From positions 32,001 to 96,000 of the IMG/VR virus record IMGVR_UViG_3300044631_002422: a DNA stretch of 64,000 nt. The stretch is one strand, 5' to 3'. Positions 612 to 11,595 of this stretch are shown here, piece by piece. Made by a program: the position numbers and the translations under genes. The notes beneath the pieces were generated by a model. It was not told where the DNA came from. It saw only the letters and a program-made list of their open reading frames with translations, and ran no database searches. Positions within the stretch are counted from its first letter, which is position 1. Each line of letters opens with the position of its first letter. The DNA comes from a virus.

Positions 612-899
612 ATGGAAAAATTCAGAATGAAAAGTTTGGTTATATTTTCTTACAAGCAGCCAGTGGATGGTTCGGTTATTCGTTGGGGAATTTTAGAACG
701 CGAACGCGATACTAAAAAAGAACCTTTATCAATCAATTCTTTATGCGGACCTTATAGAAAACGCGATGCTAACTTTGAAAGGTCGCAACATCTTGACACT
801 ATAAAAACTCGCAACGGAATAAAAACATTTTATCGCGAGCGACAAAATTGGAAAATCAAAATTCCATTTGTTGGAAGTATAGTATCGCGATTCGTATAG
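612..899 (+). CDS. hypothetical protein
   Basis: 95-aa ORF ending just before repeat element 1. Confidence 0.5.
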   Translation: MEKFRMKSLVIFSYKQPVDGSVIRWGILERERDTKKEPLSINSLCGPYRKRDANFERSQHLDTIKTRNGIKTFYRERQNWKIKIPFVGSIVSRFV

Positions 900-992
900 T
901 GTACACGCGTACAGGGCGCGGGCCGTCCCGCCGCGTCGTAAGTCCTAGAGCCACAAGCACTTACGTCAGTCAAGTAGGCAAAGCGTGTGCCA
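899..992 (+). repeat. modular intergenic element, copy 1
   Basis: GTGTAC-N4-GTACAG (899-914), GC-rich segment, CGTAAGTCC-tagagccacaa-GCACTTACG (937-965), minus-strand TGGCAC-N5-TTGC (978-992). Confidence 0.9.
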
Positions 993-1041
993 GTGAAAAA
1001 AAATAAATTTCAAGAATCTTTTTTTATTTTGCTTCAGACTC

Positions 1042-1069
1042 TTGACAAACCTAGCCGATATTGTATAAT
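1042..1069 (+). promoter_or_regulatory. sigma70-type early promoter
   Basis: TTGACA-N16-TATAAT with CCGATA in the spacer. Confidence 0.85.
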
Positions 1070-1100
1070 AAGGAAGTCAATCACACAAGCGAGAAAAAAA

Positions 1101-1343
1101 ATGTACAAAGTAGAAATTGCCACTGTTTACGGCCCCTTTTGTGGTCAAGGCGGTTATGGTACTGAAACCTGCATCGGTTTCGACCGTAGCGTTAAGCGGG
1201 CTTTTGCCAAGGCTCGCGGCCAAGGCAGTCACCGCTACGACCGTAGCCAGATTGTAACCGGCTCGCGTGGTGGCGGCGTTCCCGTTCTGGGTATGGTTCG
1301 GATTTCTCACAACGGAAAAATTATTTCCGAAATTTGGGATTGA
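1101..1343 (+). CDS. hypothetical protein
   Basis: ATG at 1101 lies downstream of the promoter; the longer 987 start overlaps the promoter. Confidence 0.6.
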   Translation: MYKVEIATVYGPFCGQGGYGTETCIGFDRSVKRAFAKARGQGSHRYDRSQIVTGSRGGGVPVLGMVRISHNGKIISEIWD

Positions 1344-1347
1344 CCCC

Positions 1348-1375
1348 TTGACAGTTGTTTTTTCTTTGGTATAAT
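1348..1375 (+). promoter_or_regulatory. sigma70-type promoter
   Basis: TTGACA-N16-TATAAT. Confidence 0.8.
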
Positions 1376-1409
1376 CAGCGTATCAGTCACACACTTTGGA
1401 GAATTGAAA

Positions 1410-1601
1410 ATGGACAGCTTCAGCACCAACCAACATTCCGACGAATTGGACTATCAACCCACCGCTGCCGATTGGAACGAATACCAAGAGTGGTATGACG
1501 GCCAAGAGGCTTGCTACCCAGAGGGTGATGACCTCCTCGACAGCGACCCCATCGACCTTTACGGTGGCGATGACTCGCACTACTGGCAATACGACGAATA
1601 G
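1410..1601 (+). CDS. small highly acidic protein
   Basis: GGAG RBS and its own promoter; 63 aa with 19 D/E and no K/R. Confidence 0.7.
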   Translation: MDSFSTNQHSDELDYQPTAADWNEYQEWYDGQEACYPEGDDLLDSDPIDLYGGDDSHYWQYDE

Positions 1602-1791
1602 GGCTTGACCCGCAAATCCCGCCCAAGTCGCGGGTATGGTATGGGGTCCATTCAAAAACCCCCTATATTCGGGAAAAGAGGTAGGCGAATTAACGTCAAG
1701 GATTTGAGAAGCCTTAGCGGTTCTGTCTTCAGCGGAAAACGGCCTCGAAGTACCATATTTCATTTTGACAGGTGAACACCTGTACACATAG

Positions 1792-1895
1792 TGTCTATGC
1801 TAAACAAAACCGATTTACTTTTTTTTCTTTGGCCGAAATTTAAGGTAGTCTTACTCAAACTAATCTGAATTGCCCCAGCATTTGGGCCAAAGTTT
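1792..1895 (+). repeat. 48-bp repeat family, tandem pair
   Basis: TGTCT..TGCTAAAC..GATTT..TGGCC.AAATTT unit at 1792-1841 and a degenerate unit at 1848-1895. Confidence 0.7.
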
Positions 1896-1940
1896 GCCCG
1901 GCCCGCGCCGCCCTAAGTCCTAGAGCCCCAAGGAGTTACA
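1896..1940 (+). repeat. modular intergenic element, copy 2
   Basis: GC-rich segment then TAAGTCC-tagagccccaa-GGAGTTA (1914-1938). Confidence 0.85.
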
Positions 1941-1976
1941 ACGATTGAAAAAAAACTTTTTTTCTGCTAAAGTTCC

Positions 1977-2004
1977 TTGACATTGTGTGCCGATATAGTA
2001 TAAT
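1977..2004 (+). promoter_or_regulatory. sigma70-type early promoter
   Basis: TTGACA-N16-TATAAT with CCGATA; 27-bp tandem duplication at 1985-2038. Confidence 0.85.
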
Positions 2005-9826: not shown

Positions 9827-9878
9827 TGTGTGTGTGTGTTTGTAGGTGAGTTTTATCTTTTAACTTTAGGAGTATTTT

Positions 9879-9968
9879 ATGAAGAAGTGTACTGGTTGTG
9901 GCCGTCCAATTGAAACTGTTGTTATTCGTCAATGTCCAAAATGCATCAACAATCGCGCTGGATTATAA
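9879..9968 (+). CDS. 29-aa Zn-finger microprotein (MKKCTGCGRPIETVVIRQCPKCINNRAGL)
   Basis: AGGAG RBS, two CxxC; below the ORF-track size cutoff. Confidence 0.6.
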   Translation: MKKCTGCGRPIETVVIRQCPKCINNRAGL

Positions 9969-10021
9969 GTGTGTGTGTGTGTGTGTGATGCCCAACAGCT
10001 TGGGGGACGCAAGTCCCCCGG

Positions 10022-10115
10022 CTGTACGGGTGTACACTACGCGGGCCGCCCCGCGACGCCCTAAGTCCTTGTGGCTCTAAGACTTACGTCAATCCGCTAG
10101 GCAAACCTCATGCCA
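10022..10115 (+). repeat. modular intergenic element, copy 5
   Basis: CTGTAC-N4-GTACAC, GC-rich segment, TAAGTCC-ttgtggctcta-AGACTTACGTCAA (10062-10092), minus-strand TGGCAT-N5-TTGC (10101-10115). Confidence 0.9.
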
Positions 10116-10155
10116 AACAAAAACAAAAATCTTTTTTCTTTTTTCCTCAAGATAC

Positions 10156-10183
10156 TTGACAAGCAATGCCGATATAGTATAAT
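10156..10183 (+). promoter_or_regulatory. sigma70-type early promoter
   Basis: TTGACA-N16-TATAAT with CCGATA. Confidence 0.85.
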
Positions 10184-10189
10184 AAGGAA

Positions 10190-10317
10190 GTGAGCAGTGG
10201 CCTGACAAGCAGGTACGACTCTCGACAGTTAAGGACCGGGAAGCTCCGGGCTGAACCGTTTCGTAGCGGTTACTGTTGATTGCTGCTGTTGGCGGTGTTC
10301 GATTCCCGCCGCTCACA
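10190..10317 (+). ncRNA. tRNA-like RNA with branched central domain
   Basis: GTGAGC/GCTCAC acceptor-like stem, T arm with TTCGATT loop, starts 7 nt after the -10 box. Confidence 0.6.
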
Positions 10318-10406
10318 TTTTTTAAAAATTCCGCTTGACATTCGTTGAGCGTAACGTATAATTCAAGAGTAACAAGTTCAGTTTTTTTTCACGAAGGGTT
10401 TTTACC

Positions 10407-11327
10407 ATGTCTACTGTTTCCCGTTCTAATGTTTCTGCCAACGAAATCTCGGCTCGCGTTGCCGCTGCTTTCAACTTCACTGTTGACAAGTTCCCGCTTG
10501 CTGGCCCAGATGGTCTTCGCACTCCGTGGTACGGTATGTTCCGCTCTGACAACAACGAAGTTGTTGGTAACGGTTCTGTAACCTCGCGGTACTGTCCACA
10601 CCAAACCGAAGACGTTCTCGCACTGGTGGATGCCGCCAGCGAAGCGTTTGAAGGTGTGGCGAGTGTTGACACCTACTTCCGCGATGGGCATTATGTCGCC
10701 ATCGAACCAACTCGCGAACAACGTTATGCGATTTTCGGCACTGCCGACAACATCTTTCCGCGTGTCGTGATTCGTGCGGGTTACGATGGCAAGGCGTTCA
10801 ACGCCGCGATGGGTTATTACCGCGATGCTTGCCGCAATCTGGCAATCATGCGACAAGTTAGCGGAACCACCGTTTCCATCCGCCACACTAGCGGACTGCG
10901 AAGCCGCATGGATTCGCTGATTCAAAGCTTTACGAGTCTTCGCGATTCGTGGCAAATGCTGGCCGCAACTGCGGTTCAGCTTGAATCAACTCGCGTGAAT
11001 CTTGCGGACTTCCTTCGCGAAGTTTACGGCGAACCCGAAACCGACAGCGGTCGTGCTGCGACTATCCATCGCAATCGTACCGAAACGATTTTCAATCGTG
11101 TGATGGATGAACGTAGCCGCACTGGTCGCGGTGCTATGCCAGCCGATTTCCGCGTCAGCGGTTGGGAAGCGTTCAACGCTGTGCAGGGATTCGTTCAGCA
11201 TGAATCAACTCGCAAGAGTTCGGCTCGCGGTGCTGCCGCAACCGGATTTGGTCGAATCATCGCCGCCGCTAACGATGCTGCGGTTCAACGTGCCGAACGT
11301 GCTGCGATGAATCTGCTCGCGGTTTAA
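10407..11327 (+). CDS. DUF932/DUF945-like phage protein
   Basis: VGNGSVTSRY..HQ, GYDG, R.ACRN, IRHT and WEAFNAV motifs. Confidence 0.75.
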   Translation: MSTVSRSNVSANEISARVAAAFNFTVDKFPLAGPDGLRTPWYGMFRSDNNEVVGNGSVTSRYCPHQTEDVLALVDAASEAFEGVASVDTYFRDGHYVAIEPTREQRYAIFGTADNIFPRVVIRAGYDGKAFNAAMGYYRDACRNLAIMRQVSGTTVSIRHTSGLRSRMDSLIQSFTSLRDSWQMLAATAVQLESTRVNLADFLREVYGEPETDSGRAATIHRNRTETIFNRVMDERSRTGRGAMPADFRVSGWEAFNAVQGFVQHESTRKSSARGAAATGFGRIIAAANDAAVQRAERAAMNLLAV

Positions 11328-11354
11328 TCTTTCGTGTGTTTCCTTTCGTGTGAG

Positions 11355-11388
11355 CCAGTGGCGGCATTTTGCCGCCGCTGGTTTTTTT
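11355..11388 (+). terminator. intrinsic terminator
   Basis: CCAGTGGCGGC/GCCGCCGCTGG stem followed by T7. Confidence 0.85.
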
Positions 11389-11516
11389 AGATAGGTGTAC
11401 AATGGTATACATACTAATCGTCATTGTGGCGTGTATTATATTTTTGATGCTGGAATTATAATTCCGGTTATACTCTGGCCGCCTAGCGCGGCCTTTTTTA
11501 TTATACTTTCGGTGAG

Positions 11517-11595
11517 TTGACGTAAGTCCTTGGGGCTCTAGGAGTTACGACGCGCGGGGCCGGGCGGCTTACTGTACATCTGTACACCTGTACGA
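11517..11595 (-). repeat. modular intergenic element, copy 6 (inverted)
   Basis: On +: TTGACGTAAGTCC-ttggggctcta-GGAGTTACG, GC-rich segment, then three CTGTAC repeats. Confidence 0.9.

Follow-up and report, generated by a model that had tools for sequence, protein, structure and literature searches.

A repeated palindrome-promoter cassette in the early region of a phage that very probably infects Planctomycetota

We analyzed a 64,000-nucleotide stretch of DNA (the window) from the IMG/VR virus record IMGVR_UViG_3300044631_002422. The window corresponds to bases 10147-74146 of a 77.5-kb virus record (the record), which represents about half of the phage genome; positions below are those of the window unless marked as contig positions. 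Our subject is a palindrome, TAAGTCC-N11-GGACTTA, that recurs among the small early genes near the start of the window. A reading made from the sequence alone (the sequence-only reading) had placed it in a six-copy module. It described a GC-rich, often hairpin-forming segment followed by the palindrome, with five forward copies each preceding a sigma70 promoter and an inverted sixth copy closing the region. In a pattern search that allowed up to two mismatches we found all six palindromes where they had been placed, each with 0 or 1 arm mismatches, and all six are intergenic, as had been stated. Shuffled windows gave a mean of 0.14 matches, and none of 100 shuffles reached six. The count of six holds for the window and needs enlarging for the record, which has 12 copies (11 by pattern search and a twelfth by half-site scan), and for related phages, which carry a family of such cassettes. 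All 12 record copies are confined to contig positions 5540-21693, a 16-kb early region; five lie upstream of the window, and the set includes one doublet with a spacing of 53 bp. Beyond this region only half sites occur, at chance level. The features of the window are as follows, with a strand where one was assigned.

899-913 (within 897-913), plus strand: GTGTACA-N3-GTACA repeat upstream of copy 1 (motif search)
915-938: GC block of copy 1, 92% G+C, 5-bp hairpin possible (composition, folding)
939-963: palindrome copy 1, one arm mismatch, centre orientation A (pattern search)
978-992, minus strand: sigma54-type -24/-12 motif, TGGCAC-N5-TTGC, pointing at copy 1 from 14 bp off (motif search)
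993-1041, plus strand: A/T tract between copy 1 and its promoter (sequence)
1042-1069, plus strand: sigma70 promoter of copy 1, 12/12 matches, CCGATA in spacer (promoter scan)
1893-1913: GC block of copy 2 (composition)
1914-1938: palindrome copy 2, orientation A (pattern search)
1977-2004, plus strand: sigma70 promoter, 38 bp beyond copy 2 (promoter scan)
4450-4474: GC block of copy 3, 7-bp hairpin possible (composition, folding)
4475-4499: palindrome copy 3, orientation B, the centre being flipped relative to the flanks (pattern search)
4538-4565, plus strand: sigma70 promoter, 38 bp beyond copy 3 (promoter scan)
7832-7849: GC block of copy 4 (composition)
7850-7874: palindrome copy 4, perfect arms, orientation B; the orthologous site of the close relative is A (pattern search)
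7890-7904, minus strand: sigma54-type motif pointing at copy 4 from 15 bp off (motif search)
7992-8019, plus strand: sigma70 promoter of the amidoligase-like operon, 117 bp beyond copy 4 (promoter scan)
10023-10037 (within 10023-10039), minus strand: GTACA repeat of copy 5, inverted (motif search)
10040-10061: GC block of copy 5, 5-bp stem in the fold (composition, folding)
10062-10086: palindrome copy 5, orientation B; the ortholog in the relative is A (pattern search)
10101-10115, minus strand: sigma54-type motif pointing at copy 5 from 14 bp off (motif search)
10156-10183, plus strand: sigma70 promoter, 69 bp beyond copy 5 (promoter scan)
11352-11384, plus strand: canonical intrinsic terminator, 15-bp stem and T run, ending the early region (terminator scan)
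11477-11493, plus strand: second canonical intrinsic terminator (terminator scan)
11523-11547: palindrome copy 6; the unit (tail, palindrome, GC block, GTACA repeat) is wholly inverted (pattern search)
11548-11568: GC block of copy 6 (composition)
11573-11595, minus strand: GTACA repeats of copy 6, three TGTAC units (motif search)
11606-11634, plus strand: sigma70 promoter, 58 bp beyond copy 6, leading to a tRNA at 11771-11843 (promoter scan)

The module consists, in this order, of a GTGTACA-N3-GTACA repeat, the GC block, the palindrome with a CGTCAA tail, an optional antisense sigma54-type motif, A/T tracts and a TTGACA/TATAAT promoter. When the centre is used to set its direction, the element reads as a quasi-palindrome of 33 bp with 9-bp arms, a 7-nt centre and the flanks G-N-C-G and C-G-N-C. 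These flanks are invariant in all 19 copies of this phage and one close relative (described below), and the asymmetric centre, TAGAG-CC-N-CAAG, is conserved in the same 19. Along the record, the centre points in one direction in the first eight copies and in the opposite direction in the last four. In most modules of the two phages the GTGTACA-N3-GTACA repeat lies upstream of the GC block, in either orientation; it precedes seven of the contig copies, and it recalls direct-repeat LexA-type boxes. A and T runs occupy the gap between palindrome and promoter in all copies. A GC block of 18-25 bp (86-95% G+C) flanks each window palindrome on one side, so the GC-rich segment of the earlier description stands. 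As to hairpins, stems of 5-7 bp are possible in 3 of the 6 window copies, RNA folding of the six gave z scores between -0.2 and -1.8, no better than dinucleotide shuffles, and the block of some relatives is not self-complementary. A permissive Rfam search of positions 1-13000 placed no family at the palindromes; its real matches (tRNA, Pistol ribozyme) lie elsewhere.

How does the palindrome relate to the early promoters? The five forward copies are followed, 38-117 bp downstream, by sigma70 promoters with 11-12 of 12 consensus matches, in agreement with the 40-120 bp given earlier. About 35 near-consensus sigma70 promoters lie in the early region of the record, 14 strong ones at positions 1-12500; their spacers conserve CCGATA, and a G often precedes the -10 box. 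The palindrome accompanies just a subset of them, and most sit right behind the preceding stop codon, palindrome-free. Where the cassette occurs, its promoter is the first of a gene block of one to about a dozen small genes. Each early gene block is headed by a cassette, and most promoters do without one. The inverted sixth copy does have all of its parts reversed, as had been noted, but rather than simply closing the region it precedes the promoter at 11606 that leads to the tRNA. It also lies directly behind two canonical terminators; the phage thus has terminators of the usual kind, which speaks against the cassette being no more than their local equivalent. The wider argument, that canonical terminators ahead of cassettes speak against a terminator role, proved weak and was dropped (2/49 and 4/23 only).

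Two further observations concern promoters of this set. Behind copy 2, a 27-bp segment covering the spacer and the -10 part is exactly duplicated in tandem (1985-2038), so that two -10 boxes follow each other. A 13-bp palindrome, TTCCCG-CT-CGGGA, occurs twice (7905-7917 and 7944-7956) in the stretch that separates copy 4 from the amidoligase-like operon's promoter; the pair is kept in the relative contig and looks like a separate operator.

A scan of related phages, which the sequence-only reading had proposed, found the palindrome in several of them. One 21.3-kb IMG/VR contig shares the exact centre and has seven palindromes; it is 81% identical to this phage over the 5 kb adjoining the early region and mosaic within that region. 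Wider relatives were found by scanning viral contigs with the promoter and its CCGATA spacer, and many large phage contigs were retrieved. These share with this phage several early genes and a block that contains genes for a sigma factor and GDP-mannose dehydratase. In at least five related contigs the element is a doublet consisting of a palindrome, a 28-bp GC-rich linker and a second palindrome, followed by CG-N-C-GATT, an A/T tract and the promoter. Across 39 doublets the spacing is 52-55 bp, nearly always 53, and the singles seen in this phage resemble one half of such a doublet. The centre of other lineages differs from copy to copy within one genome. Four relatives (L012, L024, L028 and L029) have the same three-part layout with C-run/G-run hairpins around a CCGG-containing core. 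Homologues of two early genes, encoding a 116-aa protein and a GP88-like protein, lie behind such a cassette in five or six phages, with 30-64% protein identity. We conclude that the element is a real, family-wide regulatory cassette.

Other searches for relatives were negative. Megablast of the early region against GenBank phages gave no match, nor did a search for related loci through the amidoligase-like protein. Metagenome contigs scanned with the exact centre gave 50 matches, nearly all attributable to chance or to hairpins of other kinds; none revealed a further close relative. A Planctomycetota host is indicated by a DUF1559/prepilin-type protein encoded in the window, and the phage family very probably infects this phylum. 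In one relative (contig L011), a 15-bp inverted repeat, GGACA-CCTTT-GGTCC, stands in the place of the second palindrome in the three cassettes ordered palindrome then GC block (G001 12510-12530, 13320-13340 and 14345-14365). Upstream of the window, contig 3291-3812 (minus strand; L178) encodes a sigma factor resembling the extracytoplasmic function (ECF) group (Sigma70_r2, E 1e-6). It adjoins genes for GDP-mannose 4,6-dehydratase and a conserved 265-aa protein. Several relatives have these three genes together at the edge of their early region.

Palindrome and -35 box are separated by distances that fall into discrete classes of 28-32, 37-44, 49-53 and 62 bp. These distances are periodic, with a vector strength of 0.70 at 10.5-10.8 bp, a value that none of 20000 simulations reached. 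Orientation is not fixed. Five orthologous sites could be matched between this phage and its close relative, and four of the five are inverted in some part: at two the palindrome centre is reversed and the flanks are kept, and at two further sites GC block and palindrome have changed places and the GTACA repeat and promoter are kept. These flips indicate that the element works in either orientation.

Does the palindrome act as RNA or as DNA? The GC block and the palindrome or palindromes might fold in the transcript that arrives from upstream, as this lineage's own hairpin, and terminate it, attenuate it or protect its 3' end. The location suits such a role, the cassette coming directly after the last stop codon of one block and before the promoter of the next, and another canonical terminator stands in front of only 2 of 49 palindrome-type cassettes. 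We examined pairing in 75 distinct palindromes that represent six phage lineages. Hardly any variation is seen at arm positions 1-3, 6, 8 and 9, and positions 4, 5 and 7 vary independently between the two arms. Watson-Crick pairs at these three positions number 34, 43 and 31, compared with 41.9, 48.0 and 29.4 in shuffles; there is no covariation. C.C, G.G and A.C oppositions are frequent, C.C at position 7 alone occurring in 33 of the 75, and the variable N of the flanks pairs in just 1 of 19 copies. Nor is there a strand bias in wobble pairs: G.T and A.C oppositions on the sense strand are equally common (13/13 and 17/14). Cross-pairing between the arms of the two palindromes of a doublet, which would make one long hairpin, found no support.

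Folding energies tell the same story for the palindrome and a different one for its sister lineages. Among 49 palindrome modules, sense and antisense RNA fold equally well (p 0.22), and no T run follows the window palindromes. In the C-run/G-run modules the sense strand folds better in 12 of 15 (p 0.008). These stable hairpins, occupying the same place with a sense-strand bias, keep a stem-loop as the main rival explanation, and the stem-loops of T4-type phage cassettes terminate transcription in reporter assays (PMC2839356). In Spirochaetes and Planctomycetota, perfect palindromes stand 1-11 nt after tRNA and transfer-messenger RNA (tmRNA) genes, and a T run often accompanies them; these also fit it. 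On the other side, besides the pairing and folding results and the terminators behind which copy 6 lies, the arm sequence is kept across phages whose proteins are 30-60% identical. We regard an RNA stem-loop as a possible but rather unlikely explanation. The conserved half sites are two-fold symmetric and do not need to pair, as expected of an operator, and outside this phage and its close relative the centre between them is free. Taken together, the lack of covariation, the unbiased folding, the conserved arms and the spacing classes speak for a symmetric protein that recognizes double-stranded DNA rather than for a hairpin of RNA or single-stranded DNA.

Hence we tentatively favor the view that the palindrome is a double-stranded DNA site for a dimeric protein, located upstream of the first promoter of each block inside a cassette like those of T4-type phages; we consider this plausible, although short of an even chance. 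The regulatory protein-binding site proposed by the sequence-only reading is thus the prediction that conserved half sites without covariation, tied to the first promoter of a block, support best. The palindrome would be the sequence-conserved part of a cassette that heads each multigene early block and runs from GC-rich block through one or two palindromes and an A/T tract to a consensus sigma70 promoter. Its putative half site would be the 9-bp TAA-g-t-C-c-TT, two of them flanking a 7-bp centre with a G-N-C-G extension on each side. The ancestral state may have been two such sites 53 bp apart, or five helical turns, and the promoter-proximal site would be centred roughly 80-100 bp upstream of the transcription start. 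The bound protein might act on the block's first promoter as an activator, a repressor or an insulator. Anatomy, spacings, freedom from pairing, distribution across the phage family and host copies are observed; that a protein binds, which one it is and the direction of its effect are inferred.

The attached sigma54-type motifs suggest a further role for such a protein. The motif TGGCAY-N5-TTGC occurs on the minus strand at three window copies and five record copies, 14-15 bp from the palindrome, and contains the -24 GG and -12 GC elements. Each of the record's five motifs adjoins a palindrome and is directed toward it. Of 14 such motifs in 198 kb of related phage loci, 12 lie 10-18 bp before a palindrome, mostly at 14-15 bp. 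With this spacing, the predicted antisense transcript would start 1-4 nt before the palindrome and run into the preceding genes. Where the antisense promoter is present, the bound protein would therefore be expected to occupy its start site. A sigma54 promoter relies on an AAA+ activator for opening, and Sigma54_activat had no match in the record.

Several points weigh against a protein-bound operator. In this phage and its close relative conservation extends to the centre (7-11 bp), something that a simple dimer site would not require. A-tract units gained or lost, and not phasing of the palindrome, could have produced the 10.5-bp steps. The sense-biased C-run/G-run hairpins of sister lineages could mean that the palindrome is a replacement hairpin, and most upstream operons, with so few terminators before the cassettes, have no other visible stop signal. 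Since the copies of any one genome share a common origin, their counts lack independence. Finally, no binding protein was found: the record has no HU/IHF gene, and Pfam and PHROGs searches of about 38 early-region proteins found no DNA-binding domain except that of the ECF-like sigma factor. The 116-aa protein behind cassettes was dropped as a candidate binder: it is acidic and also occurs in a lineage with the other hairpin type.

Global operators are found at variable distances from their promoters in other systems, among them the 12 KorB operators of plasmid RK2 and the early shut-off operators of phages. By analogy, we predict that the palindrome behaves most like an operator of this kind: it occurs about a dozen times, upstream of strong promoters, at discrete distances and independently of orientation. 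It differs from KorB sites in its GC block and 53-bp pairs, and the sequences are unrelated. Integration host factor (IHF) provides a second comparison, with sites upstream of phage early promoters such as lambda pL and Mu Pe and in the RIP/RIB elements of Escherichia coli. An arm with its inner neighbor reads CAA-N4-TTA, the 3' part of the IHF consensus (compared by eye, with no scan), and the location about 80-100 bp upstream of the start, beside an A/T tract, is typical of IHF-assisted promoters. In this phage, however, the WAT part is missing and the site is two-fold symmetric. We rejected an IHF site, since only CAA-N4-TTA fits.

The sequence-only reading had compared the element to the promoter/stem-loop (PeSL) cassettes of T4-type phages (Arbiol et al. 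2010, PMC2839356; Comeau et al. 2014, PMC4122927). The layout bears the comparison out. In both cases short composite intergenic cassettes lie between small early genes, forming many repeats in a plastic region; and a stop codon is followed by a GC-rich block, an A/T-rich tract and a strong sigma70 promoter. The GC-rich block may form a stem-loop here as it does in PeSLs, and relatives may likewise differ by exchanges at the cassettes. The sense-strand pairing constraint expected of a stem-loop does not carry over, the arms here having none. Other differences are the 25-bp palindrome with conserved arms, single or as a 53-bp doublet around the GC block, its restriction to the first promoter of a block, the antisense sigma54-type promoter often attached, and the presence of the palindrome in host chromosomes. 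This phage also has genes for RecA and DnaB of bacterial type, with no T4 hallmark apparent.

Might the palindrome itself mobilize the cassettes, as had also been proposed? A recombinase would then excise, insert or invert early-gene cassettes at a site with the core geometry used by tyrosine recombinases. The 9-7-9 arrangement suits a core site (arms of about 9 bp, overlap of 6-8 bp), the centre is near-identical in 19 copies, and its polarity switches once along the genome. One Gimesia genome has the palindrome after a full tRNA-Pro gene and, as we read it, after a 3' fragment of tRNA-Pro. At the protein level, three of the relative's seven cassettes clearly lie at gene-order breaks and a fourth probably does, always with a different upstream neighbor and the same downstream genes; two are collinear with this phage on both sides. 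Against a recombination site, further breaks occur at junctions that have a promoter only, the orthologous flips affect the site itself and not the DNA between two sites, and the differing centres within genomes of other lineages would block strand exchange. Linkage to the downstream genes is kept across five or six related phages. Phage_integrase, the tyrosine recombinase family, had no match in the record (serine recombinases lay outside the search), and no Y1 transposase was found there. We consider a site-specific recombination site very unlikely. The cassettes are the longest repeats of the early region, so ordinary homologous recombination is enough to explain the exchanges, and such recombination was proposed for PeSLs (PMC2839356). 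As a by-product of the role we favor, repeated cassettes would then serve as patches of homology for the exchange of gene blocks.

The scan of Planctomycetota chromosomes suggested earlier was positive. A genome collection scanned for perfect or near-perfect palindromes gave at least 120 loci, and Planctomycetota and Spirochaetes were strongly represented among the matches listed. Five Planctomycetota genomes had 1-15 palindromes each, two of them 8 and 15, compared with 0 for a reversed control. In a sample of 151 Planctomycetota genomes the palindrome occurred in 36, with 62 matches against 19 for the control. The distribution is patchy, with up to 15 copies per genome, several of them at contig ends. 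One uncultured Planctomycetia genome has at least four doublets exactly 33 bp before TTGACA/TATAAT-like promoters; here the two palindromes are 90 bp apart, and a third closes a unit of about 1 kb (L159, L160, L162, L165, L179-L181). The cargo of this unit is a 311-aa open reading frame (ORF) in one case, the first 238 aa of which give a weak homeodomain-like helix-turn-helix match; other units have no clear ORF.

The tRNA- and tmRNA-trailing hairpins mentioned above have the perfect form TAAGTCCTT-N7-AAGGACTTA, trail a wide variety of such genes and account for 30 of 125 among the matches listed (L044-L156). By impression this looks above chance for one stem sequence. We set them apart from the element, as they look like ordinary terminators with T runs.

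The palindrome could also be selfish DNA, a relative of repetitive extragenic palindromic (REP) sequences and bacterial interspersed mosaic elements (BIMEs). It would form a single-stranded hairpin for a transposase and survive in harmless intergenic spots, the doublets being the mobile form and the single copies decayed halves. Published REPs with a CGTC tag have the unpaired tag at one end, an 8-9-bp stem starting with A/T pairs and a 4-5-nt loop; they occur as head-to-head dimers (PMC3733652). The element resembles them in several ways: small imperfect extragenic palindromes of 25-33 bp, CG-N-C tags, fixed-spacer doublets beside single remnants, frequent flips of orientation and a patchy distribution between genomes. 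The stem here is 9 bp but the loop is 7 nt, the tags are symmetric and on both sides, and pairing is not maintained. The arm sequences are absent from the supplementary files of PMC3733652, and we rejected membership of the published CGTC families. REPs have many dispersed chromosomal copies, whereas this element has 12 clustered copies in the phage and 0-15 per host genome. The phage copies are confined to one region at a constant place relative to the promoter, and they precede the same downstream genes in distant relatives. The flanks gave no signal of target-site duplication (6 of 19 equal, 4.4 expected), and the record has no REP-associated tyrosine transposase (RAYT), the Y1 enzyme that goes with GTAG REPs. 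Hence we regard a REP-like origin as unlikely.

The host copies permit a broader proposal, which we advance as quite improbable. The palindrome and the GC core may be the site of an undescribed sequence-specific factor common to Planctomycetota and their phages that marks the borders of transcription units. Sites that immediately follow tRNA and protein genes or immediately precede strong promoters would suit a protein-based insulator combined with a promoter-proximal element, a logic comparable to that of eukaryotic TTF-I and Reb1. In the phage the factor would also occupy the start sites of the antisense sigma54 promoters, and its release would switch on antisense transcription across the early genes and so silence them.

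Host takeover by phages of Planctomycetota is poorly understood, as are the transcription signals of that phylum. The cassette is a defined, repeated control element of early genes, made up of a 33-bp site, a GC block, a strong promoter with a CCGATA spacer and an antisense sigma54-type promoter. Host chromosomes share the element, and its lineage-specific versions in related phages should let the binding factor be found by co-variation. The idea that mobile promoter/stem-loop cassettes drive the shuffling of early genes is thereby extended beyond T4-type phages.

Three minor features of the window complete the description. The Pistol ribozyme match lies within the early region at 3004-3065 on the plus strand and covers the full model length at 47.7 bits (gathering score 34.5). 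The long spacer that precedes copy 5 contains a (TG)9/(CA)9 microsatellite at 9970-9987, and a shorter one occupies 9827-9838. The RecA gene, at 55423-57525, is interrupted by a LAGLIDADG homing-endonuclease or intein-like insert.

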